A stretch of 59,621 nucleotides of DNA from an uncultured Candidatus Saccharibacteria bacterium (GTDB lineage Bacteria > Patescibacteriota > Minisyncoccia > UBA6257 > GWB1-50-10): the NCBI GenBank assembly GCA_964357525.1, contig CAYHLH010000001.1, forward strand, positions 77,719-137,339, written 5' to 3'. Below, one piece after another: positions 1 through 59,621 of the stretch; within the stretch, counting starts at the first letter, position 1, and each line of letters opens with the position of its first letter. The notes beneath the pieces are model-generated. The model saw nothing but the letters and a program-made list of their open reading frames with translations. It made no database searches and was not told the DNA's origin. The position numbers and the translations under genes were made by a program.

Positions 1-1
1 A

Positions 2-898
2 TCATCCTTTGAGCATTCCGAGCGCCTCATCCAGTCCCTTCCCCTCGACCACAAGCGCCCTAATGGCGGAACACATGCGAACCGCCTCAGAGAGTCCCTT
101 CTGGTGGATGTTCCTCCCCACGGCGGCGCCCTTCGCCCCCGCTTTCAGCTCCTCGGCGAGGCGCACGAGGAATTCCTTGGGGTCGCGCGACTCACCTCCC
201 GCGCAGATGACCTTGGTCCTGCCTCCCGCCTTCACGGCCTCCGCAAGCTCAGTAACATCGTCAGGGGCGTCAACTTTCGCGAAATCCGCCCCGAGCGAAG
301 CCGCAACTCCTGCGGCTCCGGCGACGAGATGCGCGTCGTTCTTCTTAACGATTGCTTTTCCGCGCGGGTACGCCCAGAGGATGGCGATAAGGCCGTTTTC
401 GTGCGCCTCGCGCACGGCCTCAGACGCCTCCTTGAGCATTTCCGTCTCATATTCGCTTCCTATGTAAATTGTGTATCCGATGCCCAAAATCTTGAGCTTT
501 GTCTCTTTGGCGAAGGAAACGACGTCCTTCACGTCCGCGAGCTCCGCGCTCTCCGGGTCCTTCTCCGAAAGGGGCACGAGATTCGTCTTTGAATTCAACT
601 TAACGATATACCGCAATTCGGGATAGCTCCCTCCGTAGCGCGCGATGAGCCCCATCTGCGTGGCAAGCGCCCCCACAAATCCCTGCTCCGCCACACGGAA
701 GAGATGCTCCGGATCGGCATCGTCCTCGCTGATGCCAAAACCTACAAAATCGTCATTCAAATGCTCTATTTTCTGGTCGCCGGCCAAGAGGAAGAGGTTT
801 CCCGACCCCTGCGTCAATTCGAAATAATTCTTCGTGTACGCCGCCTTCGCCTTTTTCGGCACATCAAGCGGCACCAAAATATCCTTCGTTGTGATCAT
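2..898 (-). CDS. class I fructose-bisphosphate aldolase, DhnA/FbaB family
   Basis: 298-aa ORF. Blocks VKLN, IYIGSE, ILWAYPRG and GADFAKV follow the FbaB/DhnA class I aldolase pattern. TACAAT lies 6 nt upstream of the ATG. Confidence 0.7.
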   Translation of the reverse strand: MITTKDILVPLDVPKKAKAAYTKNYFELTQGSGNLFLLAGDQKIEHLNDDFVGFGISEDDADPEHLFRVAEQGFVGALATQMGLIARYGGSYPELRYIVKLNSKTNLVPLSEKDPESAELADVKDVVSFAKETKLKILGIGYTIYIGSEYETEMLKEASEAVREAHENGLIAILWAYPRGKAIVKKNDAHLVAGAAGVAASLGADFAKVDAPDDVTELAEAVKAGGRTKVICAGGESRDPKEFLVRLAEELKAGAKGAAVGRNIHQKGLSEAVRMCSAIRALVVEGKGLDEALGMLKG

Positions 899-940
899 AA
901 CTACATTGTACCATGCCTGTTTTTTTATTTTAAAGGATAA

Positions 941-966
941 AAAACACCCACAAATGTGGGTGTTTT
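941..966 (-). terminator. hairpin terminator between 1017..1529 and the aldolase gene
   Basis: aaaacaccca-caaa-tgggtgtttt, flanked by A/T runs. Confidence 0.6.
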
Positions 967-1016
967 GATAAAACTATAAAATTTAACAGTCTTATTCATC
1001 CTTGGAGAAAGATGTA

Positions 1017-1529
1017 TTAATCAATTATCCTTTTCTTGGGTATTTGTTCCATCTCTGATAATTTATTACCTACGGCTTCTCTTAACTCGAGTTCCTCTTT
1101 TACAACCCTTTTCATATCTTCTGATACCACTTCGCTATTTACAATATCTTCTGGCTTAGAAAAATTATTTTCTTCATAATAAGAATAAAAATTTTCGTAT
1201 GCAAAATCTCTCATGCCCTTCCCAAGCTTGATGCCAAAAAAATTTTTTCCGCAGATTTTATCGAATTTTTCTCTAAGATTCATTTTATACCTACTGTATA
1301 TGGATTTATACTCCGCCCTGGAATAATATTCGTGGGCATTCATTTCAGACTCATACACACTAAGAGTATCCAAAACGCCTTTCCATTCGTTATTGACATC
1401 CTCAAGACCCCTGACCACTTCAAGTTTCTTTTGGTTCTTTTTATATTGGGAATACTCGTAAAAAACAAACCCTGCGACGCCTACAACAACTAGGCAAGTA
1501 AGTAGAAGTAAAACCGTCTTTTTCTTCAT
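1017..1529 (-). CDS. hypothetical membrane-anchored protein (AT-rich island)
   Basis: 170-aa ORF with an N-terminal hydrophobic helix (LLLLTCLVVVGVAGFVFY). No recognisable domain. Confidence 0.5.
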   Translation of the reverse strand: MKKKTVLLLLTCLVVVGVAGFVFYEYSQYKKNQKKLEVVRGLEDVNNEWKGVLDTLSVYESEMNAHEYYSRAEYKSIYSRYKMNLREKFDKICGKNFFGIKLGKGMRDFAYENFYSYYEENNFSKPEDIVNSEVVSEDMKRVVKEELELREAVGNKLSEMEQIPKKRIID

Positions 1530-1637
1530 TTTCTTCTTTCGTTTTTAGTTTTTAAATAAAATAGGTTATTTCAATGATTTAATGCTGAAAAGATTATACT
1601 ACCAATAACAATGGTTGTCAACTTTATGTGCACGAAC

Positions 1638-1663
1638 AAAAACCCCGTTGCAACGGGGTTTTT
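1638..1663 (-). terminator. bidirectional intrinsic terminator
   Basis: aaaaaccccgttgcaacggggttttt, directly after the stop of 1673..3850. Confidence 0.7.
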
Positions 1664-1672
1664 GAGGAAACT

Positions 1673-3850
1673 TTATGACTTTTTTTCTGTAAGAAGAGTG
1701 GTGTATTTCTTCCAAAGATCCATTACTTTCGGGGGGAGACGGTGCTTTTCGCGGACTTTCATGGCTGCAATTTCAATGAGTGTTTCTGCCTCCCCAGGAG
1801 TTACTTTATCAAAATTAACCGCCTCTCTTACCTCCTTGAAGGGCTCGCTGTACGTCCCACTTTCAAAGAGACCGTTTCTCTTCCAATTTAATTCCCTCAA
1901 TTTATTTCCATCTGCTTCAATATTTTTCTTGATGCGTTCCACCTCACTTTCAAGGTCGGTTTTCTTCTTTTCCCATTCCGCCTTTTTAAACAAACCCGGC
2001 TTAGTGCCTGAGTGGGTACTTACCGCATTCCTTGCAGTTTTTAAATCCGACTCAAGCGCCTTCTGGTGGTCTGCAACTTCATGCCATTTTTCACGCATGG
2101 TAGCGTCAATAATATCATTACCATCAAGAACCACTAGATGACCTTCGGGTATTTCCTTTAAAAACTTGTCGGCATTCTTGATGATCACATTGCATGAATG
2201 CTCATATTTCTCCGCGCTTTCAATTGTAAACCTTACATCAGAAGAGTCCTGCACTTCCTTGCCGTAAGGCGTCTTCAACTTTTCATCCTTGCATTCTTCC
2301 ACGAGTTCTGCTTTCAAAAACTGCTTTTCAGCCTCTTGAAGGGTGATTTTTGCAACATCTGCTTCTATCTCGCGAAGGTATTTTTTCTTTTGCATCACAT
2401 ACTCTTTGGCTTCGTCATAATTTTTGATATTTCCACGCTCTTGTGAAAAAACTCTTTCTTCGTTTGAAGTAACCTCGTACGAAGCTTTGCGTCGAAAATC
2501 TTCCGTTCTAAATGAATACTCCGGCTTATTTTTAAAAACTTCCTTATATCCTTCCCTTTTCGAAAGACCTCCAAACTCGCGATCGGCATCTTCCTGGGTT
2601 TTTACACTTGCCACCTTTTCTTCCAAGAAACGTAAAAAATCTTCCTGTTTTTTGCACGCTTCAAGAATCTTTCCGTAATCAACAGAAGGCGGAAACTCAT
2701 TTAAAGCCTTCTGGACCGCCTTCAGGGACTGCTCTTCGTCCCCAAGATGTCCCACGAAACCATTCGCATATTTTGACCCCCAATTGAACACGAGCGTGAT
2801 TCCTTTTTCACTTTGAACTTTATCCATACGCTCACCAATCTCATCTCTCTTTTGAATTACTTCCTGAAGAAAACGTACGGCCTCACTCCCCTTTTCCGGT
2901 GACCATCCTTCAATGTCTTTTTCATACTGATCGAGATGGACGACGTTTTTGCTTAAATTGTCGAATGCCACATCAATCTTTTCTTCTATGGCCCGTGATT
3001 GAGCTTCTTTTGCAATTTCCCAACCGTATTCCTTTGCAATCGATACCACGACATTAGGAACGAACTGGTCTTTCGCATAATTGATCTTATTAATGCATTT
3101 CTTCTTGCTAATGTCGTAAAACACACCTTCATCCTTATCATACCCACTGTACCCCTCATTAAAACTTACTCCAAAACCCTCCAACTGAATGCTTCTTGGA
3201 TTTTCAAAAGAGTGGGTATTAACCTGAATTTTTCTCTTTCCTGGAATTTTCTCGCTGATTTCTTTAGCAAAAAAATCAAGTATCTCTTCTTTGCCCTCTG
3301 GCGTTTCGAGTTTCTTATGAAAAAGCTCTTTTTGGAATTCTGGAATTCTTTTGCCTACTTTTTCGGCGAGGGCGGCATAATCCAATTTGCCTTCAGCAGT
3401 CTCAATACCGAACTTTTTCAGGCGGTTCTCTAATTGCCGATCCGTAAGCTCGAGTTCTTTAACGTCTTTTTCAGCGGATTTATACGCCTTCACCTCTTCT
3501 TCCTCGTCGAATTCAGGGCGCGCGATAAGTTCCTCTTTAGAAGTAATCCCCACTTTTTCCTTGAGCGCTTCCTTGTTTTCGTAAAAAACGTTCTCGATCT
3601 CGGTTTCCTGCTTTTTCAACTTATCGGTTGTTTCAGAAGCATACTCCTCCATGCCGATGCCTTTCCCCTGCTCTTTATCCGATTTGAACGCCAAAGAGCC
3701 TCGCAAAACTTCAAGTGAGTGCATCTGTTCCTCCATATCCTTTATTTCCGCGCGAATCGGCGCAAGACGCTCTTCTTCCTTTTTCTGTTCTTCAGTCTTT
3801 TTCTGAATTTTATGCTCCGCGGAAAGTTTCCCCAGTTTTTCTTTTAACAT
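1673..3850 (-). CDS. large K/E-rich hypothetical protein (AT-rich island)
   Basis: 725-aa uninterrupted ORF in AT-rich DNA with coiled-coil-like composition. No motif I recognise. TATAAC lies 6 nt upstream of the ATG. Confidence 0.55.
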   Translation of the reverse strand: MLKEKLGKLSAEHKIQKKTEEQKKEEERLAPIRAEIKDMEEQMHSLEVLRGSLAFKSDKEQGKGIGMEEYASETTDKLKKQETEIENVFYENKEALKEKVGITSKEELIARPEFDEEEEVKAYKSAEKDVKELELTDRQLENRLKKFGIETAEGKLDYAALAEKVGKRIPEFQKELFHKKLETPEGKEEILDFFAKEISEKIPGKRKIQVNTHSFENPRSIQLEGFGVSFNEGYSGYDKDEGVFYDISKKKCINKINYAKDQFVPNVVVSIAKEYGWEIAKEAQSRAIEEKIDVAFDNLSKNVVHLDQYEKDIEGWSPEKGSEAVRFLQEVIQKRDEIGERMDKVQSEKGITLVFNWGSKYANGFVGHLGDEEQSLKAVQKALNEFPPSVDYGKILEACKKQEDFLRFLEEKVASVKTQEDADREFGGLSKREGYKEVFKNKPEYSFRTEDFRRKASYEVTSNEERVFSQERGNIKNYDEAKEYVMQKKKYLREIEADVAKITLQEAEKQFLKAELVEECKDEKLKTPYGKEVQDSSDVRFTIESAEKYEHSCNVIIKNADKFLKEIPEGHLVVLDGNDIIDATMREKWHEVADHQKALESDLKTARNAVSTHSGTKPGLFKKAEWEKKKTDLESEVERIKKNIEADGNKLRELNWKRNGLFESGTYSEPFKEVREAVNFDKVTPGEAETLIEIAAMKVREKHRLPPKVMDLWKKYTTLLTEKKS

Positions 3851-3898
3851 GATTTTGTTATATCACAATCAAAAAATAAAAGCAATACTTCAACATAT

Positions 3899-4657
3899 TT
3901 ATATCAATAATTCAATAGATATTGGACAATGATCCGAGCCGTACACGTCGTCATGGATCTTTGCCGACCTCAAATGCGGCACGAGGCGCTTGTCCACGAA
4001 GAAGTAGTCTATGCGCCAGCCGACGTTACGGTCCCGCGCGAAGCTCTTCATGTCCCACCACGAGTAGTGTTTCCCGCCCTTCTCGAAGACCCTGAAGGAA
4101 TCCACATATCCGGCTTTCACGAACTTGTCGAGCCAACGGCGCTCCTCGGGCAAAAATCCGGAGACGCCCTCGTTCTCTTTCGGCCTCGCGAGGTCAATTT
4201 CTTTATGCGCCGTGTTCACGTCCCCGCAGAACACGACAGGTTTTTTCTTTTTCTTCGCATATTTTAAAAATGCGTCATAGAATGCAAGTTTGTATTCAAG
4301 ACGGTCGGGCGATGCCTTTCCATTCGGGAAATAGACGTTCAGGAGGAAAAAATCATTAAATTCAGTTTCAATTATCCTTCCCTCGCCGTCAAGCGCGGGA
4401 ATCCCAAAATGGGTTTTCACAGCAACTGGAGAGACCCTGGTCCACGTAGCGACGCCGCTGTATCCACGCTTCTCGCCGTTGGAATAGGAGATACCGTATC
4501 CGGGTATGCTCCTTAGGTCCTCTGGAAACTGGTCTTCGTGAGCCTTCGTCTCCTGCACGCACACGACATCGGCCTTAGTTTTCAGGAACCACTCCAAAAA
4601 ACCCTTCTTGTGCACCGCCCGGATGCCGTTCACGTTCCAGGAAATCAATTTAATCAT
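3899..4657 (-). CDS. xth: exodeoxyribonuclease III
   Basis: 252 aa. N-terminal ISWNVNGIRA and C-terminal SDHCPI are typical of the ExoIII/APE1 family. Confidence 0.9.
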   Translation of the reverse strand: MIKLISWNVNGIRAVHKKGFLEWFLKTKADVVCVQETKAHEDQFPEDLRSIPGYGISYSNGEKRGYSGVATWTRVSPVAVKTHFGIPALDGEGRIIETEFNDFFLLNVYFPNGKASPDRLEYKLAFYDAFLKYAKKKKKPVVFCGDVNTAHKEIDLARPKENEGVSGFLPEERRWLDKFVKAGYVDSFRVFEKGGKHYSWWDMKSFARDRNVGWRIDYFFVDKRLVPHLRSAKIHDDVYGSDHCPISIELLI

Positions 4658-4676
4658 AACTATTTAAAATAATACC

Positions 4677-4701
4677 CTGACATTCTCAAGTTTGTAAGGG
4701 T
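4677..4701 (-). repeat. 25-nt box, copy D (between the arsR-like stop and the xth start)
   Basis: ctgacattctcaagtttgtaagggt is repeated at 5011-5035 with one mismatch. It is embedded in hairpin aataccct...agggtatt (4671-4704). Confidence 0.8.
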
Positions 4702-4708
4702 ATTCTTT

Positions 4709-4993
4709 TCAGACATGACGGAATGCTTTCAAAAAACGTACAAATGTCTTGCCGTAAGGAGACAGTGAATGTTCAACGAATTTGCCACGATACCTTTTGT
4801 CCAAAAGTCCAGCCTGTAAAAGCCGGCGCGTATGATCACCAATTGTCTTTTCGTTCGCGTGCAACGTCTCAGCTATCGCTTCAAGCGTGATCCCTTCTTG
4901 CTCGTCAACAAGAATGAGAATGTTGATACGGTGATGATTCGCAATCCCCTTCAAGTGCCGCTCCATCTGTCTAGCGGTTTTCACATTGCTCAT
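4709..4993 (-). CDS. ArsR/SmtB-family HTH transcriptional regulator
   Basis: Winged-HTH region INILILVDEQEGITLEAIAETLHANEKTIGDHTRRLLQAGLL. Start set at MSNVKT because TATAAT lies 6 nt upstream; the ORF track extends to 5095. Confidence 0.75.
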   Translation of the reverse strand: MSNVKTARQMERHLKGIANHHRINILILVDEQEGITLEAIAETLHANEKTIGDHTRRLLQAGLLDKRYRGKFVEHSLSPYGKTFVRFLKAFRHV

Positions 4994-5010
4994 ATTCACA
5001 TTATAACATA

Positions 5011-5035
5011 CTGACATTCTCAAGTTTATAAGGGT
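5011..5035 (-). repeat. 25-nt box, copy U (upstream of the arsR-like start)
   Basis: ctgacattctcaagtttataagggt, in the same orientation as copy D. Confidence 0.8.
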
Positions 5036-5153
5036 GTATAACAAATAAAAACAAAGTAAGGCGGCTGTGGATAAATCTTGACCGAATGCGCGCAAAATGG
5101 TACAAATGAAAGGTTATTTAAAAATAAATTTATAAACATGAAGGAGAATAGAT

Positions 5154-5588
5154 ATGGAAAACGCTTCCCGTTCCACCGCCATTATGCCTCAGGAAGAGGC
5201 CAAGATTTTCAGGATATTCAGAAAAAATCACATTGATTTCGCGCTCTCAAACGGATGCATAAAATTTCTCACGGCTTTTTTGCCCGGGGAGAAATCCAAA
5301 AAAACGACCGACAATCCTGTTTTCATAGGGGACGAAAAGAAAAAAGTCTTACAAACAAGAATCGAGGCTCAAGAGAACGGGCTTGAGACGTTTCACTGGA
5401 TACAAGGGATAGAATTCGCGGGAAAAAACGCTCCGATGGTCAGGGATGTGACGATCTATTGCCCCATCAATGAAAAGACGGGATTGGTGATATGGTTCGA
5501 CACGAACAAGGAAATAGTGAGGGCAATGTTGCTATCGGAACCTACCAATTTTCACCCAAAGATGAAAATCCCCTGTTGTCGAAAGTAG
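5154..5588 (+). CDS. hypothetical protein
   Basis: 144-aa ORF preceded by AAGGAG 7 nt before the ATG and followed by a terminator. No known domain recognised. Confidence 0.5.
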   Translation: MENASRSTAIMPQEEAKIFRIFRKNHIDFALSNGCIKFLTAFLPGEKSKKTTDNPVFIGDEKKKVLQTRIEAQENGLETFHWIQGIEFAGKNAPMVRDVTIYCPINEKTGLVIWFDTNKEIVRAMLLSEPTNFHPKMKIPCCRK

Positions 5589-5614
5589 CGGCAAAAAACA
5601 CCGCGAATGATTTT

Positions 5615-5647
5615 GAAGCGTTGTATTTACAACGCTTCTTTTTTTTT
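5615..5647 (+). terminator. intrinsic terminator
   Basis: gaagcgttgta-ttt-acaacgcttc followed by a T9 run. Confidence 0.8.
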
Positions 5648-5650
5648 CTA

Positions 5651-5730
5651 TCATCTAGCGTAGCGAGGAAATACAAAAAACCGCTTTTGTATTTACGAGC
5701 GAGCGAAGATGACAAGGGCGAAGCCCGCCA
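5651..5730 (+). repeat. F2 hairpin element, tandem copy 1
   Basis: Outer stem TCATCT/AGATGA, internal loops AGCGTAGCGAGG and ACGAGCGAGCG, inner stem AAATACAAAA/TTTTGTATTT, then GGGCGAAGCCC. Confidence 0.8.
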
Positions 5731-5811
5731 TCATCTAGCGTAGCGAGGAAACGGAAAGATTTTACATTTACGTTTACGAGCGAGCGAAGATGACAAGGGC
5801 GAAGCCCGCCA
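5731..5811 (+). repeat. F2 hairpin element, tandem copy 2
   Basis: Flanks identical to copy 1, with a different inner segment. Confidence 0.8.
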
Positions 5812-5823
5812 TTGTTTGTATGA

Positions 5824-5895
5824 GCACCCTTAGCTCAGTGGTAGAGCGTTCCGTTCACATCGGAAAGGCCGTAGGTCCGATCCCTACAGGGTGCA
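5824..5895 (+). tRNA. tRNA-Val (anticodon CAC)
   Basis: Cloverleaf: acceptor GCACCCT/AGGGTGC, D arm GCTC-AGTGGTA-GAGC, anticodon arm TTCCG-TTCACAT-CGGAA, T arm GTAGG-TCCGATC-CCTAC, discriminator A. No CCA is encoded. Confidence 0.85.
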
Positions 5896-5899
5896 CACG

Positions 5900-6448
5900 A
5901 TGATCTTCCTTTTTTATTTTTTGCTCCTTCTCCTTGTTCTCGCCGGGGCGTATTTCCTCCTCGGGGCGTACCGCCTTCTCGTGAGGCGCGAGATACTGTT
6001 CGTTCCGACATCGAACGCGATGCTTCCCGCGCTCGCGGAAGGCATGGGCATCCGCCCCGGGGACGCCGTCTACGACCTCGGGTGCGGCAACGGGCGGATA
6101 CTCATCGCGCTTGCGGAGCGCGAAAAAGGCGCGCGGTATGTCGGCATAGAAAGAGACATAATTCCCTATATTCTTTTTAAACTCAAGCTGCGCGGGAAAA
6201 AACTCCCTATAGAGGCGCGGAGAGCGGATTTCTTCGGTGAAAACATTTCCGAAGCAACGCATGTAGTGATGTACCTCATTCCCTCAATGATGCCGAGGGT
6301 CGTCGAAAAGCTCTCGCGCGAAGCGAGGCCCGGAACACGGATATTCTCCGTGGACTTTCCGCTCCCCGCCTCGTGGCGCATCCGCACTCTGCCGCCAATA
6401 GAGACCGGACACTACGGCAGGAAGATACATCTCTATCTCGCGGAATGA
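5900..6448 (+). CDS. class I SAM-dependent methyltransferase with N-terminal TM helix
   Basis: Motif I VYDLGCGNGRI. Start moved to the ATG at 5900 because the GTG at 5891 overlaps the tRNA. Confidence 0.7.
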   Translation: MIFLFYFLLLLLVLAGAYFLLGAYRLLVRREILFVPTSNAMLPALAEGMGIRPGDAVYDLGCGNGRILIALAEREKGARYVGIERDIIPYILFKLKLRGKKLPIEARRADFFGENISEATHVVMYLIPSMMPRVVEKLSREARPGTRIFSVDFPLPASWRIRTLPPIETGHYGRKIHLYLAE

Positions 6449-6492
6449 AAAATCCCGACATGATGTCGGGATTTTTCCGGAGAAGCCGCCGA

Positions 6493-6858
6493 TTACTGCA
6501 ATTCCACGACAGCTCCCGCTTCTTCCAATTTCTTCTTCAGCGCTTCCGCGTCCTCCTTCTTCATCGCTTCCTTCACCGTCTTCGGCGCGCCATCGGCGAT
6601 ATCCTTGGACTCCTTCAAGCCCAATCCCGTCGCCTCGCGGATGACCTTGATGACGTTGATTTTCTGCTCGCCGCTGGATTTCAATACAACATTGAATTCC
6701 GTCTTTTCCTCCGCGGCTTCGCCGCCGTTTCCTCCGCCCGAGGCCGGCATCGCCGCCGACACGCCGAACTTCTCCTGCAGGACTTTTACGAGCTCCGCAA
6801 GCTCCATGACGCTCATTTTTTCTATTTCCGAAACGATCTTATCGAAGTTTTTTTCCAT
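6493..6858 (-). CDS. rplL: 50S ribosomal protein L7/L12
   Basis: 121 aa. [19 protein letters not shown] ... C-terminal domain [19 protein letters not shown]. Confidence 0.92.
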
Positions 6859-6882
6859 AATTAATATTTATATTTTCGACTT

Positions 6883-7374
6883 TTATTTTACCTGTTTCGC
6901 CCTTTCTCCAAGCACATACAAGAACATGCTCATCGGCGAGGCGATTGTGCCAACCACCTGCGAGAGCAATACTTCGCGTGGCGGCAAACTGCCGATTGCG
7001 GTTACCTCCGCACTGTCAAAGAATTTTTTCAATTCGGTGTCTAATCCGCCGAGGATTTTGAACGCTTTCACGTTCTTCGCAAATCCATAAACTGTCGCCG
7101 AGAGCGCTTCTATGCCTTCTTTTGAGAAAGCTATGCCAACCGAGCCCGCAAAATCCTCCGGATTAATATCAATGCCTTTCTTTTGGAATGCCACGCGCAA
7201 AAGGCGTTTTTTGAACACCTCAAACCGCGCTCCGGCATCATGCAGCGATTTCCTAAAAGCGTTCAGCTCGTTCACTTTTACGCCGGCGAAGTCCGCAAAA
7301 ACGAGCGTTTTGTTCTCGTCAATGCCCTTAAGGCCCGCTTCTATCTGTGTTTTCTTTTGTTCTTTTGTCTTCAT
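6883..7374 (-). CDS. rplJ: 50S ribosomal protein L10
   Basis: 163 aa, L10 N-terminal pattern (LVFADFAGVKVNELNAFRKSL), directly upstream of rplL. Confidence 0.9.
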   Translation of the reverse strand: MKTKEQKKTQIEAGLKGIDENKTLVFADFAGVKVNELNAFRKSLHDAGARFEVFKKRLLRVAFQKKGIDINPEDFAGSVGIAFSKEGIEALSATVYGFAKNVKAFKILGGLDTELKKFFDSAEVTAIGSLPPREVLLSQVVGTIASPMSMFLYVLGERAKQVK

Positions 7375-7531
7375 AAAAACGAAAAACTGCGACCTTTATA
7401 CCGCAGTTCAAATCCGGAAAATTCCGGTTCTTCCTCGGCAGGTCTTCTACCCTTTTCTCTGGGTTGCCTGTCCCGACGTCCGCTTTGCGGAATCGGGACT
7501 CCGACTTTGCGTCAGAGCTTTCTGCGGATAC
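7375..7531 (-). promoter_or_regulatory. structured 5' leader of rplJ (candidate L10-leader type autoregulatory RNA)
   Basis: ~157 nt lie between the promoter and the ATG. Hairpins: GTCCCGATTCCGCAAAGCGGACGTCGGGAC, CCGGAATTTTCCGG, and CTGCG..CGCAG followed by a T-run right before the ATG. Confidence 0.4.
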
Positions 7532-7537
7532 GGGACT

Positions 7538-7566
7538 ATAATAGGTCTGAAGTCGGATGGTGTCAA
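7538..7566 (-). promoter_or_regulatory. sigma-70-type promoter of rplJ-rplL
   Basis: TTGACA-17 nt-TATTAT on the minus strand. Confidence 0.6.
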
Positions 7567-7590
7567 CTGTTGATTAAAGGTAAATAAAAA

Positions 7591-7612
7591 AGGGGGGTTA
7601 TCTCTCCCCCCT
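7591..7612 (-). terminator. intrinsic terminator of 7636..8019
   Basis: AGGGGGG-AGAGATAA-CCCCCCT followed by TTTTTATTT (minus sense). Confidence 0.75.
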
Positions 7613-7635
7613 CTCTCTTTAATTTTGAAACTTGT

Positions 7636-8019
7636 TCATCTTTCCAGGTCGTTATATCGGTAGTTATACATTTTCCCAAACAGCTTATCTTTGACTTTTC
7701 CCTCGGCAACCTCATACTTCAGCAAAGTATTCTTATACAATACACTCTCCCCTTTGGTTACCCGGGTTATCATTATAAAGCGTCCAGCGAAAGGAACGCT
7801 TTCCCTGCAATTACTATGCAGAATGACAAGACACCGACAAGGATGGATCTCTGAAAGAGCTCCTTTGTGGATTGTCGATCTCCTTTTTGTTTTTGTGGAG
7901 CACCCTTTGTAAATCGTTGAGGTTATTTCAACCGTCTTACCAATCGCATCTATCAAGGCTTGAAATTCTTTCCTCAGACGTTTTTCCTGCGGGGTCCGCG
8001 GAATCTGCAAATCATGCAT
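7636..8019 (-). CDS. hypothetical protein (AT-rich island)
   Basis: 127-aa ORF with a perfect GGAGG 6 nt upstream of the ATG and its own terminator. Confidence 0.5.
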   Translation of the reverse strand: MHDLQIPRTPQEKRLRKEFQALIDAIGKTVEITSTIYKGCSTKTKRRSTIHKGALSEIHPCRCLVILHSNCRESVPFAGRFIMITRVTKGESVLYKNTLLKYEVAEGKVKDKLFGKMYNYRYNDLER

Positions 8020-8088
8020 CTTAAACCTCCAATTTTAAAGTTTCTAATAAATTCATTGTAAACTAAATTTTAAAATTCGTCAATAAAT

Positions 8089-8120
8089 GCAAAACCGCTC
8101 CTTTCAAGGAGCGGTTTTGC
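8089..8120 (-). terminator. terminator after dnaJ
   Basis: gcaaaaccgctcc-tttcaa-ggagcggttttgc. Confidence 0.75.
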
Positions 8121-8134
8121 AGTTTTTGGATCCG

Positions 8135-9223
8135 CTACAACTCGGTGTCTAATTCCTCCAAAAGCTTTTTCGCCTTCGCGGAGACCTTCTTCGGGGTCTT
8201 TACGGAAAGCTTCACATAGAGGTCTCCCCTACCGAAGCCGCCGAAGCGCGGCATGCCGCGCCCCGGAACGCGGAGAAACTCGTCGAAATCGAATCCCGCG
8301 GGAACGGAGAACGAAATTTCCTCTCCGCCGATGTCCTTCAAACGGAGCGTTTTCCCGAGGAGCGCTTCCGTGACCTTCACTTCCCGCTTCGCATAGAGGT
8401 CGGCGCGCTTGCGCTCGAAGACGGGGTGCTTTTTCACGCGCGCGACGATATAAAGGTCGCCGACACCGCCTCCGCGCTCGCCCGCCTCCCCGGCTCCCCT
8501 TATCTTGATGATCTGCCCGTCCTCGATTCCCGCCGCGAACTCCACCTCCGCGGCGCGCTTCCCTTCTATCCTCCCCGTCCCATTGCACGCGACGCACGGC
8601 TTCTTGGGCACCTCCCCTTTCCCGAAGCAGTTCCCGCACGTCTTCACCTGCGCGAAATTGCCGAAGAACGTCCGCTGTTCCATCCTCACTTCCCCCTTGC
8701 CGCCGCACACCGAGCATTTGATAAACCCATCCTTGGGAAAATGGCCCGCCCCGGCGCACTCCTTGCACGTCACATGCGTATGGAACGCGACGGTGCGCCG
8801 TATGCCGCGGAACGACTCCTCCAAAGAGAGCGTCTCCGCCGCCTCCACGTCGCTCCCCCGGCGGTAGGTTTCCCGCGCGCGCCCTCGCCCGGGGAATCCG
8901 CCGAATATCGTCTCGAAGATCTCCCCGAAGTCGCTGAAATTCGCCCCATTTACGTTCCATTCGCCGCCCCAAGCCGATGGGTCGAATCCCGGAAACCCTC
9001 CACCGGGGGCGCCGGCGTCGAACGCGCGGCCGAACCGGTCGTACTGGGTGCGCTTATCGCGAGAGCCGAGCACTTGATATGCCTCGTTTATCTCCTTGAA
9101 CTTCTTCTCGTCACCTCCTCCCTTGTCGGGATGGTATTTGTGCGCGAGGCGCCGGTACGCCCTCTTGATCTCCTCGTCGGACGCGGTGCGCTGAACCCCG
9201 AGTATTTCGTAAAAATCCCTCAT
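8135..9223 (-). CDS. dnaJ: molecular chaperone DnaJ
   Basis: J domain with HPD (YHPDKGG), G-rich linker, four CxxCxGxG zinc motifs. Confidence 0.95.
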   Translation of the reverse strand: MRDFYEILGVQRTASDEEIKRAYRRLAHKYHPDKGGGDEKKFKEINEAYQVLGSRDKRTQYDRFGRAFDAGAPGGGFPGFDPSAWGGEWNVNGANFSDFGEIFETIFGGFPGRGRARETYRRGSDVEAAETLSLEESFRGIRRTVAFHTHVTCKECAGAGHFPKDGFIKCSVCGGKGEVRMEQRTFFGNFAQVKTCGNCFGKGEVPKKPCVACNGTGRIEGKRAAEVEFAAGIEDGQIIKIRGAGEAGERGGGVGDLYIVARVKKHPVFERKRADLYAKREVKVTEALLGKTLRLKDIGGEEISFSVPAGFDFDEFLRVPGRGMPRFGGFGRGDLYVKLSVKTPKKVSAKAKKLLEELDTEL

Positions 9224-25591: not shown

Positions 25592-25602
25592 AGTTTTAGA
25601 AT

Positions 25603-26838
25603 TTAGAATTTGGAAATACACTCTTCGATGGTTATGAGTTCCACTTTTTCTTCGGAACGTTTTTTGAGCTCCACTTTGTTTTCTTTCATTGTGCGCTCGC
25701 TTGCAATGATCCTCCACGGGATACCGATGAAGTCGGATTCGAAGAGCTTCTCGCCGGGGCCGGCGTCTCTCTCGTCATAGAGCGTTTCCACGCCATTTTT
25801 AGTGAGGTCACTGTACACCGTCTCCGCGAATTTTTGAAGCCCCTTTTCGGATTTTCCAATGGAGAGGAGGTGCACCGCGAAGGGAGCTATTTCCTCGGGC
25901 CAGACTATCCCTTTTTCATCGTGGTGAATCTCAACGGCAGCGCCGATGAGGCGTTCAATGCCGATGCCGTAAGAAGCCATGATTACAGGATTTGCAACAC
26001 CCTTCTTGTCCTTGAACGAGAGCCCCGCGGCCTCGGAAAACCTTGTCCCTAGCTTGAATATATTGCCTACCTCTATTGCTCTGGCCTCTTCGAACGGCCC
26101 CCCGCATGACTGGCATTTTTCTCCCTTTTTAGCAATTTCCGAGTTCCGCGCCATATGGCACTTCCGGCACATAACAATGGAGTCCTCCCCTATGGGCGAT
26201 TCCACCATGAATTCATGCGAATATTCCTTTGAAAAATCGCCACCAGATGCCTCCGTGAGGAGCGCCTTGAGCCCGCAGCGGGAAAATATCCGGAAATAGG
26301 CCTCTTTTGCCGACTCATAGAATTCCACGAGCGATTTCTCGTCCGCATGAAAGCTGTAAAGGTCTTTCATGGTGAACTCCCTGCCGCGCAAGAGCCCCGA
26401 CTTCGCCCTCGGCTCGTCGCGGAACTTGGTCTGTATCTGATAGAGCGCCTTCGGCAGGTCGGCGTATGATTCTATCTTCCCCACCGCGAGCGCCGCGACG
26501 ACCTCCTCGTGCGTGGTGCCGAGCCCAACCTCCTTCCCCGCGTGGTCCTTGAACTGGTACATGATATTTTTCAGCGTCTCCCACCTGCCGGAGGCGTCCC
26601 ACACGGACTTCGGATGGAGCGCGGGAAGGAGCATCTCCTGTCCGCCGATGGAATTCATCTCCTCGCGGATGACGTTCATCACCTTCTCGCGGACGCGGAG
26701 CCCCAACGGAAGGAACGAATACACGCCCGCCATGAGCTTCTCTACATACCCTCCGCGTATCAAAAGGCGGGCGTTTTGGGCCGCCTCGTCCTTCGGAAAA
26801 TCCTTTTGAACCTTCAAAAACAGTTCGGATTGGCGCAT
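25603..26838 (-). CDS. proS: prolyl-tRNA synthetase (short, no large editing insertion)
   Basis: Start at MRQSELF. Class II motifs (FRDEPRAKSGLLRGREF, GIGIERL). Confidence 0.9.
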   Translation of the reverse strand: MRQSELFLKVQKDFPKDEAAQNARLLIRGGYVEKLMAGVYSFLPLGLRVREKVMNVIREEMNSIGGQEMLLPALHPKSVWDASGRWETLKNIMYQFKDHAGKEVGLGTTHEEVVAALAVGKIESYADLPKALYQIQTKFRDEPRAKSGLLRGREFTMKDLYSFHADEKSLVEFYESAKEAYFRIFSRCGLKALLTEASGGDFSKEYSHEFMVESPIGEDSIVMCRKCHMARNSEIAKKGEKCQSCGGPFEEARAIEVGNIFKLGTRFSEAAGLSFKDKKGVANPVIMASYGIGIERLIGAAVEIHHDEKGIVWPEEIAPFAVHLLSIGKSEKGLQKFAETVYSDLTKNGVETLYDERDAGPGEKLFESDFIGIPWRIIASERTMKENKVELKKRSEEKVELITIEECISKF

Positions 26839-26954
26839 ATTAATACGCTTCAATCCTAACAAAATAAGCCCCCGGGGGCAAATTATTCGATATAATAAAA
26901 ATCTCCTTGTCAAAAGGCAAGGAGAAAAGAATTTAAGGATACAAAATTTAAATT

Positions 26955-27542
26955 TCAAAATGTTACCGCGCGGGAAAATATTGTGTCTTCATCTTTGCCC
27001 CAACCATATGTATTATACTTTTGCGTTCCTACATACACTTCATGTTTATGTATAACATAACGTACATATACAGCAATAATTTTTCTGTTTTTTAACCTTA
27101 GATAAAAAACATTTACCCCACCGCTGTTGTTAAAAATGTTGACTCCACCATTTATATAATCTTCCAGTAAGCATTTCGAAATTCCTAAAATTTCTAAAAT
27201 AGAAAAAGGTTCGGGTTCGCCAAGATCACAACAAATCTCAGAATCATACAAATTAGTCTTTTCAATCGATGTAAATCCATCAAGTTTTACACCCGAAAAT
27301 TCAATGGCATTTGTTGGAGCATTCTTCAAGATACATCCAATAAATTCTTCAGTAAAATTCACTTTTAGATTGCCAGAACCGACGCTGAGAAAACCCTCCA
27401 CATCAAACATTTTGGCAGGAATTTCTACAGTTTTTGACAAGATGCGTTTCAAAAGTTTGAGCTTTGGGGTTTTTATTTTTTCTACACGAGCTATCCAAAA
27501 GTTTTTTAATTCATTTGGGCCCCGATTACCTTTTTGGGGCAA
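26955..27542 (-). CDS. hypothetical protein (AT-rich island)
   Basis: 195-aa ORF with a non-ATG first codon, so the start is uncertain. No domain recognised. Confidence 0.4.
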   Translation of the reverse strand: MPQKGNRGPNELKNFWIARVEKIKTPKLKLLKRILSKTVEIPAKMFDVEGFLSVGSGNLKVNFTEEFIGCILKNAPTNAIEFSGVKLDGFTSIEKTNLYDSEICCDLGEPEPFSILEILGISKCLLEDYINGGVNIFNNSGGVNVFYLRLKNRKIIAVYVRYVIHKHEVYVGTQKYNTYGWGKDEDTIFSRAVTF

Positions 27543-27637
27543 TCAATGTTTTAAAATAAGCTTTAATTTACAGTATAATTTTACTGTCTTTTAATTATAT
27601 CATAAAACAAAAATAAATGCAAATATCTCGACAAAAC

Positions 27638-27667
27638 CCATCCGCTCCAATCGATTGGAGCGGATGG
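27638..27667 (+). promoter_or_regulatory. 30-nt palindrome abutting the -10 box of the YerC-like gene
   Basis: ccatccgctccaatcgattggagcggatgg, followed by TATAAT (27668-27673), then 6 nt, then the ATG. Confidence 0.7.
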
Positions 27668-27679
27668 TATAATTAAAGC

Positions 27680-28045
27680 ATGGTCAGAATCAATCGTACT
27701 CAATTCCCCGCTGCACTGCGCCAAAAAACATGGAAAGCGCTCTGGATAATGGGTAAGGATTCAGAGTCCCCCGAAGCGATGATGCGCAAACTCAAAAAAG
27801 TAATCGCTCCGTCCGAAATTGAGATGTTTGAGAAACGTCTCGCTATTATGATCCTTCTCAAGGAAGGGTTTAGCTACAGAGCCATCGGACGTGCCATAGA
27901 TGTGAGTCCCTCTACAATCAGTTTCATAAAACATAACTTCACGCGGAAACCTGCCACCCGCTCCCGATATGCTCCGTCATCAAAGAAAAAATATCCTAAA
28001 TTTCATCATTCATCTAAAGGAGTGGGCACATTGCTCTGGAAGTGA
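27680..28045 (+). CDS. TrpR-related YerC/YecD-family HTH protein, paralog 1
   Basis: 121 aa. SEIEMFEKRLAIMILLKEGFSYRAIGRAIDVSPSTISFIKH resembles the YerC/TrpR HTH layout. Confidence 0.65.
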   Translation: MVRINRTQFPAALRQKTWKALWIMGKDSESPEAMMRKLKKVIAPSEIEMFEKRLAIMILLKEGFSYRAIGRAIDVSPSTISFIKHNFTRKPATRSRYAPSSKKKYPKFHHSSKGVGTLLWK

Positions 28046-28051
28046 ACAAAA

Positions 28052-28081
28052 ATGCCCGCTCCAATCGATTGGAGCGGGCAT
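28052..28081. terminator. same palindrome core reused as a bidirectional terminator
   Basis: aaaaatgcccgctccaatcgattggagcgggcatttttt. It shares CGCTCCAATCGATTGGAGCG with 27638-27667. Confidence 0.7.
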
Positions 28082-28188
28082 TTTTTAATTGACCTTCCTA
28101 AACAGACCAAAGTTAATGAAGCTCGCCTGCCCAGTTATAATTTTGCAAAAAACGCAGCGCCAGTTCTTACCGCTTACAGCTTTAAACT

Positions 28189-58958: not shown

Positions 58959-59345
58959 TTACTTGGCTTTTGAGAAGAAAACCTCGATGTTCTGGAGTAT
59001 CTCGTCCATCGAGATCTTCGCCTTCACGAAGTAACCCACGGCGCCGAGAGATTCCCCGCGCTTGATGTCGGACTCCTGTCCGAGGTTCGAAATGATGATG
59101 ACGGGGGGCTTTCGGTACTCGGGGCTCGTAGTCATGGTCTCCATGAACTCGAACCCGGACATCCCCGGCATGATGATGTCGAGTAGGATGAGGTCCGCGG
59201 GGGTTTCCTTGAGGAATTTGAGGACGTCGGAGGCGTTCTGAAATACGGTCGCCTTGTGCCCCGAGCGCTCCAGGCGCTGTTTCAGGAGGTTTCCGAGGAG
59301 GAACTCGTCCTCGACGATAAGGATGTGTTTTTGCTCCGGCGGCAT
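58959..59345 (-). CDS. single-domain response regulator (CheY-like receiver)
   Basis: Start at MPPEQKHILIVEDE. DLILLDIIMPGMSG phospho-acceptor Asp region and the conserved K (YFVKAK). Confidence 0.85.
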   Translation of the reverse strand: MPPEQKHILIVEDEFLLGNLLKQRLERSGHKATVFQNASDVLKFLKETPADLILLDIIMPGMSGFEFMETMTTSPEYRKPPVIIISNLGQESDIKRGESLGAVGYFVKAKISMDEILQNIEVFFSKAK

Positions 59346-59568
59346 ACGGATTTCAGTATACAGAAATTTTTCTCGTTGTTCCAATAGCGAAGAACCGAAT
59401 TGTTTCGAGTGGAACGGTCATCCACATAAATGAATAATATAGCCCGGTGCAAGGATGCTTCCAAAGCATGACACCCCTTTTCGCGAGCATGCGCTCACGA
59501 ATAGAAGTGAAATGCCTACCGCGTCCGCCGGTCGGCGGAGCAGTTTGCACGCAAAAGCTATCGACGTT

Positions 59569-59621
59569 GAGTTAATTGGTCCACGAGCAGCTTCCGCTAC
59601 CCGTGCCTTGTTACGACTTCG
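59569..59621 (-). rRNA. rrs: 16S rRNA, 3'-terminal ~50 nt (gene continues beyond the window)
   Basis: The rc reads GAAGTCGTAACAAGG-CACGGGTAGC-GGAA-GCTGCTCGTG-GACCAATTAAC, i.e. the universal 1492 region plus helix 45 with a GGAA loop. The exact 3' end is approximate. Confidence 0.8.

Follow-up and report, generated by a model that had tools for sequence, protein, structure and literature searches.

Loss of the anti-Shine-Dalgarno (anti-SD) sequence at the 3′ end of 16S rRNA recurs in bacteria with small genomes (Nikolaeva et al. 2021, PMC7782861; Lim et al. 2012 and Amin et al. 2018, as cited in PMC7782861). The closest described case is that of the Parcubacteria. In the passages of Tsurumaki, Saito, Tomita and Kanai (2022, RNA 28:1041; PMC9297842) that deal with this motif, CCTCCT is detected in just 48% of the Parcubacteria, there is a broad overlap between the lineages that lack it and a group without uL1, and the Shine-Dalgarno (SD) helix is thought not to form in such lineages. 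A search of the literature on Parcubacteria or Patescibacteria together with Shine-Dalgarno or leaderless found nothing further. The DNA analyzed here is a stretch of 59,621 nucleotides, which we call the window, and it ends within a 16S rRNA gene (rrs). We consider it very likely that, taken jointly, this gene is a functional Parcubacteria/Paceibacteria 16S, the anti-SD has been lost throughout its lineage, initiation there is SD-free, and the tail is no replacement anti-SD.

The 16S rRNA 3′ end and its flank

The minus strand from 59621 to 59569 reads CGAAGUCGUAACAAGG-CACGGGUAGC-GGAA-GCUGCUCGUG-GACCAAUUAACUC and continues with AACG. The features of this end of the window are as follows.

59569–59621, minus strand: last 53 nt of the 16S rRNA (end of the h44 3′ strand, helix 45 and 3′ tail); the rest of the gene lies beyond the window
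59582–59605, minus strand: helix 45, CACGGGUAGC-GGAA-GCUGCUCGUG, from the covariance-model alignment
59569–59581, minus strand: 3′ tail GACCAAUUAACUC, where E. coli has GAUCACCUCCUUA, with AUUAA in place of the CCUCC core
59420–59568, minus strand: structured 3′ trailer (external spacer), a branched domain of ~125 nt that opens with a clade-conserved GUCGAU
58959–59345, minus strand: response-regulator gene (PF00072), the next gene after rrs; the same order of rrs and response regulator is found in a related contig, L121

The 53 nt of 16S in the window could be extended to 201 nt with L001, an independently assembled ENA contig of 1859 bp from groundwater (0.1-µm fraction), which was matched through its exact response-regulator protein; it is identical to the window at the 16S end and contributes 150 nt of extra 16S. 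Infernal aligned positions 1–201 of L001 to positions 1319–1533 of RF00177 (158.8 bits, E = 9e-48), and the last 13 model positions, GAUcACCUCCUUu, fell on GACCAAUUAACUC. Because the tail aligns to the final positions of the model, the anti-SD core has been replaced rather than deleted: the tail reads GGACCAAUUAACUC, and the bacterial consensus is GGAUCACCUCCUUU / GGAUCACCUCCUUA. The initial annotation had described an intact helix 45 with its GGAA loop, a tail without CCUCC and no CCUCC in the following 200 nt, and each of these statements is borne out. In helix 45, 10 of 10 positions are paired, with G-U pairs at two, and the conserved GGAA loop is the counterpart of the dimethyl-adenosine loop in E. 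coli 16S. The anti-SD positions are filled by the new tail, on which independent assemblies concur, and the first CCTCC past it lies at window position 59301, 268 nt beyond GGACCA and within the response-regulator coding sequence. These results confirm 59569–59621 as a genuine bacterial 16S 3′ end that lacks the anti-SD core.

When the last 48 nt (59574–59621, minus strand) were scored at permissive thresholds, the top score went to the eukaryotic SSU model RF01960 (38.5 bits), and the tail GGAYCAAUUA is similar to GGAUCAUUA at the end of 18S. This similarity, of no more than a few letters, probably arose by convergence.

Since metagenome assemblies are often broken or wrongly joined at rRNA genes, and this gene sits at the window end, the tail could be the product of a chimeric join within the conserved rRNA helix, in which case it would be foreign or belong to no organism. 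The same junction, however, is present in three independent assemblies: L001 and two Logan contigs from two groundwater metagenomes, the first (X1) spanning the junction of tail and spacer over 59100–59609 with 0 mismatches and the second (X2) spanning it with 1 mismatch. Moreover, the same tail stands beside an orthologous response-regulator gene in L121, a JGI contig and the sole match with the tail in a scan of metagenomes. Its tail, GGACCAATTAACTCAA, is the same as that of the window; its 16S is 94% identical to the window 16S over the last 201 nt, and the product of its downstream response-regulator gene has 73% amino-acid identity to that of the window gene. We give an assembly artefact virtually no weight and read the tail as belonging to this gene. 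The L121 16S (2772–4444, minus strand) is near-complete (1304.9 bits) and takes 1673 nt to cover model positions 61–1533, and therefore carries ~200 nt of insertions; insertions are common in CPR rRNA genes. In the same groundwater samples, normal ...TCACCTCCTTT tails of other organisms are present as loose ends, so the method detects anti-SDs where they are present.

Between the 16S and the response-regulator gene lies a gap of 225 nt. No tRNA or 23S follows rrs, which indicates that the rRNA genes are unlinked. Much of the gap is structured: a 240-nt stretch that includes the trailer (59346–59585) folds at −82.6 kcal/mol (z = −4.4 against shuffles), and 10 of 35 trailer pairs are kept through double changes relative to L121 (2640–2775, minus strand). 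Both observations would suit a mature 16S that reaches into the trailer, which would remain on the small subunit as a 3′ expansion segment and take part in initiation. The covariation, however, comes from two sequences only, and a covariance model built from them found the window and L121 and nothing comparable in ~100 related loci. Structured 3′ spacers are, in addition, ordinary in pre-rRNA processing, and the clade-conserved GUCGA that directly follows the tail resembles a processing or boundary element. We regard an expansion segment as extremely unlikely, and continue to take the tail as the probable end of the mature 16S. The trailer had no match in Rfam, and a search for leader/trailer duplexes in relatives, aimed at a processing stem, was noisy and gave no interpretable stem. 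In many Paceibacterota 16S genes (among L002–L120), GTCGA(T/A/C) occurs 10–45 nt after helix 45, at a variable distance past the AU-rich tail, and is often trailed by GTTGAA-like words. This motif may be a signal for pre-rRNA processing or a boundary signal.

Relatives and the breadth of the loss

The nearest 16S sequences, helix 45, the origin of the matching contig in a 0.1-µm groundwater sample and gene content all point to a host within the Parcubacteria/Paceibacteria (CPR). Among the matches, the nearest named 16S sequences are 88–91% identical and labelled Patescibacteria group, Paceibacterota or Liptonbacteria. By Pfam content, the window holds deoC, xth and tRNA-Val; hrcA-grpE-dnaK-dnaJ, serS, greA and PBP2; mreBCD-like genes, rseP, frr, holB, pgk and a type IV pilus cluster; and the ribosomal cluster rpsM-rpsK-rpsD-rpoA-rplQ-rplM-rpsI. 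Type IV pili and a reduced gene set are typical of CPR genomes. The genes rplJ-rplL (7374–6493, minus strand) stand alone, preceded by a gene without Pfam match (7636–8019, minus strand); the window contains neither rplK nor rplA, and L1 and L11 domains were absent from all window ORFs scanned. The lone rplJ-rplL fits the published uL1-lacking group, without being proof of membership.

To gauge the extent of the loss, one genome per species was scanned with the pattern AAGTCGTAACAAGG-N10-GGAA-N10-GAYCAD, which demands a base other than C where CCUCC would begin. The scan yielded at least 119 loci, at least 108 of them without CUCC after GAYCA, and these come almost entirely from Patescibacteria/Paceibacterota MAGs. 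Labels among the listed CUCC-less loci include Staskawicz-, Nealson-, Lipton-, Harrison-, Colwell-, Campbell- and Lloydbacteria and Minisyncoccia, and dozens of the listed Paceibacterota genomes have a helix 45 identical to that of the window. Tails among the listed loci read GAYCAAUUAA(A/U)(C/U)U, GAUCAAUUAUUU, GAUCAUUUAUUU and similar, many of them with GAYCAAUUAA. In the 101 listed anti-SD-less loci with at least one called gene, no G occurs in the first five tail positions, and positions 2–3 are U in 86–93%. The five closest sequences all have GGAYCAAUUAA; past it, 3–6 nt vary (CUCAAC here) before a conserved GUCGAU. Judged from these tails, loss of the anti-SD is an inherited trait of the clade. 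In several loci with Gastranaerophilales or Omnitrophota labels, L022, L066 and L073 among them, the tail is anti-SD-less and helix 45 is of the Parcubacteria type; such loci probably come from CPR contigs that were wrongly binned with other MAGs.

The scan matches also include Candidatus Microsyncoccus archaeolyticus PMX.50 (L046), a co-cultured relative. Its tail is of this kind too, which makes it feasible to map start sites and determine ribosome structures in the clade. For the locus itself, a search of sequencing runs with the window as query turned up no RNA run, and the one metatranscriptome listed (X9) matched in nothing beyond conserved rRNA words and a fragment of a diverged response regulator.

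Signals upstream of genes

We compiled a hand-curated, Pfam-supported list of 59 window genes, whose starts we assigned ourselves from the longest ORF checked against Pfam domain starts, and counted an SD core as GGAG, GAGG or AGGA at −20 to −4. Such cores precede 10 of the 59 genes (17%), compared with 11.2 ± 2.9 in random windows and 7–17 at other offsets. Applied to a region of E. coli K-12 and its annotated genes, the same count gave 50 of 70 (71%), against 2–4 at control offsets; this region served as the positive control, the CUCC-retaining loci among the matches listed (11 loci, 37 genes) giving too weak a signal for the purpose (SD core in 16% versus 8%). Duplex energies agree with the counts. 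With the canonical anti-SD ACCUCCUUA, the mean upstream of window genes is −3.43 kcal/mol (controls −3.36 and −3.95), and that of E. coli genes is −6.45 kcal/mol versus −2.1 and −2.6 at control offsets. In the relatives' loci among the matches listed, an SD core was found in 6–11% of genes, which equals the control offset. The initial annotation had reported that core genes lack an upstream GGAGG and had proposed SD-independent initiation as the default. All 11 genes it named (dnaJ, dnaK, grpE, rplL, rplJ, serS, mreB, mreC, frr, holB and xth) are indeed without one, grpE having only GAGGAA at −19; and with SD cores no more frequent than chance and no gain in energy over controls, SD-independent initiation as the default is supported at the scale of the window.

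The three best canonical SDs of the window stand ~5–8 nt before an ATG: AAGGAG-8-ATG (start 5154, plus strand), GGAGGT-5-ATG (8019, minus strand) and AAGGAG-8-ATG (33204, minus strand). All three are low-GC orphans (43–46%, core genes being at 55–62%) without Pfam match, and a PHROGs search of them was uninformative; they may be recently imported genes. Composition is strongly uneven along the window (1–9000 and 25600–28100), with 44.6% GC in the first 5 kb versus ~60% at 10–25 kb, and orphan genes of 170, 725 and 195 aa are among several at 34–42% GC.

These three good canonical SDs would make sense if another rrs copy elsewhere in the genome had a normal CCUCC tail, or if the window copy were a decaying pseudogene. 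Both versions are at odds with an intact helix 45 and h44 and a strong RF00177 score, and with the near-complete, high-scoring 16S of L121, which bears the same tail; the loss is, besides, common to more than 100 species. Depth at the junction in the Logan contigs (~3.5) equals that of the single-copy flank, CPR genomes usually have one rRNA gene set, and the core genes show no SD enrichment. We consider either version highly improbable, and hold to a functional 16S that lacks the anti-SD.

We also considered that the anti-SD had been rewritten rather than lost, such that the new tail AAUUAACUCAACG would pair with a co-evolved mRNA motif (GAGUUAA, GUUGA or GAGU) and docking would persist. Several counts in the window lean this way. 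GAGT lies upstream (−22 to −1) of 12 of the 59 genes where 2.6 are expected, GGAGT upstream of seven (0.9 expected) and GTTGAA upstream of four (0.25 expected); GAGU can pair with ACUC of the tail, and in one pilin gene (start codon 58865, minus strand) GAGTTAA and the ATG are 5 nt apart. Several of the GAGT cases, however, are a Glu codon GAG followed by the stop of the upstream gene (GAG-TAA or GAG-TGA), and pairing of upstream regions with their own tail is weak: the mean is −1.5 kcal/mol, a difference of −0.39 kcal/mol from control offsets, which 13 of 100 permuted tails equal. Over the 494 genes of 101 anti-SD-less species among the matches listed, own tails gave −1.61 kcal/mol and swapped tails −1.50 kcal/mol (p = 0.84). 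In relatives GAGT is not enriched (17 versus 23–29 at control offsets), and ACUC itself is unconserved, the nearest relatives carrying AUUAU, AUUAC or UUUU at that place. With the permutation, tail-swap and relatives' enrichment tests all negative, we reject a rewritten anti-SD, which we judge exceedingly improbable; the AU-rich tail appears to stand in for the anti-SD in position only. The GAGT excess in the window is in part a matter of GAG-stop gene ends.

The upstream regions do carry other signals. We scored a TATAAT-like box as a hexamer with at least 5 of 6 matches to TATAAT that ends 4–12 nt before the start codon. This box precedes 13 of the 59 window genes, as compared with 0–5 at shifted offsets and 1 of 70 genes in E. 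coli, and in the 494 genes of relatives, from loci among the matches listed, TATAAT occurs 37 times just upstream versus 9–10 times at control offsets. Examples from the window are given below.

pgk, PQ-loop gene and HTH121: TATAAT, 6 nt, start codon
h154: TATAAT, 8 nt, start codon
deoC: TACAAT, 6 nt, start codon
59355–59384, minus strand: promoter-like TTGGAA-18-TATACT, ending 9 nt before the response-regulator ATG

A −10-like box so close to the start suggests leaderless mRNAs, here for 13 of the 59 window genes, and the promoter-like sequence 9 nt from the ATG predicts a near-leaderless mRNA for the response regulator. Stop-to-start gaps of at most 10 nt, or overlaps, are found at 22 of 52 same-strand neighbor pairs, and such tight or overlapping junctions suggest translational coupling. 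The 20 nt before starts have 40% GC versus ~55% in coding sequence, with an A/U maximum at −6 to −4.

Together, these observations can be drawn into one account. The lineage would have lost the anti-SD core, with GGACCAAUUAACUC now in the place of GGAUCACCUCCUUA, and with the core gone no SD helix would form on the ribosome. Its genes would have lost their SD sites correspondingly, as they have in the window. Genes that lead a transcript may be translated from leaderless or near-leaderless mRNAs, their −10 box lying 4–12 nt before the start codon, and genes at packed or overlapping junctions may rely on termination-reinitiation or coupling. The remaining genes could depend on A/U-rich, weakly structured upstream regions, and the new AU-rich tail would have no part as a replacement anti-SD. 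A more far-reaching version, which we hold to be very doubtful, is that the GGAYCAAUUAA tail, perhaps with the structured trailer, is a working part of a mitochondria-like mode of initiation in Parcubacteria and not a decayed remnant. If it were true, the tail could aid loading of 70S or 30S on 5′-terminal AUGs or A/U-rich junctions, and the canonical SDs before low-GC orphans would mark recently imported, poorly translated genes. The account that we prefer, SD-free initiation with a tail that is no replacement anti-SD, has consequences of its own. A large bacterial branch would translate without the interaction of SD and anti-SD, start calling based on ribosome-binding sites will misplace starts in such genomes, expression of CPR genes in other hosts would be affected, and the loss bears on the evolution of translation initiation.

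Comparison with known systems

Other routes to initiation without SD sites resemble this one in part. Bacteroidia reportedly initiate independently of SD while keeping CCUCC, which is said to be sequestered in the ribosome. Genes without SD sites and A-rich upstream regions are shared with them, whereas CCUCC is retained there and is gone from the sequence here, as the RF00177 alignment shows. Actinobacteria and Deinococcus are rich in leaderless mRNAs, with a −10 box directly before start codons, and in this they match the window; in Actinobacteria, however, the anti-SD is retained and leadered genes use SD, and the anti-SD is absent here. The tails of mitochondrial and eukaryotic small-subunit rRNAs are without anti-SD, and this much of the 3′ end is common to them and the present gene.

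Bacteria that lost the anti-SD along with much of their genome come closer, with a degenerate 16S 3′ tail, small genomes and simplified ribosomes in common. The known cases are mostly insect endosymbionts and Mollicutes, in scattered, independent losses, whereas here the loss is inherited in a large, free-standing radiation and comes with a conserved replacement tail, GAYCAAUUAA. Closest of all is the Parcubacteria subgroup of Tsurumaki et al. (2022). Affiliation with the CPR and Parcubacteria, absence of CCUCCU at the 16S 3′ end and spread throughout a clade are shared with that subgroup as its motif is described in PMC9297842. Loss of the anti-SD in a subgroup of the Parcubacteria has thus been known since 2022, and the window adds a member and supporting statistics. 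Relative to the same passages of PMC9297842, the additions are the SD statistics of the window, the signatures of leaderless mRNAs and coupling, and the negative test for a replacement anti-SD; in all that those passages treat as essential nothing differs, and the organism of the window is one more member of that subgroup.
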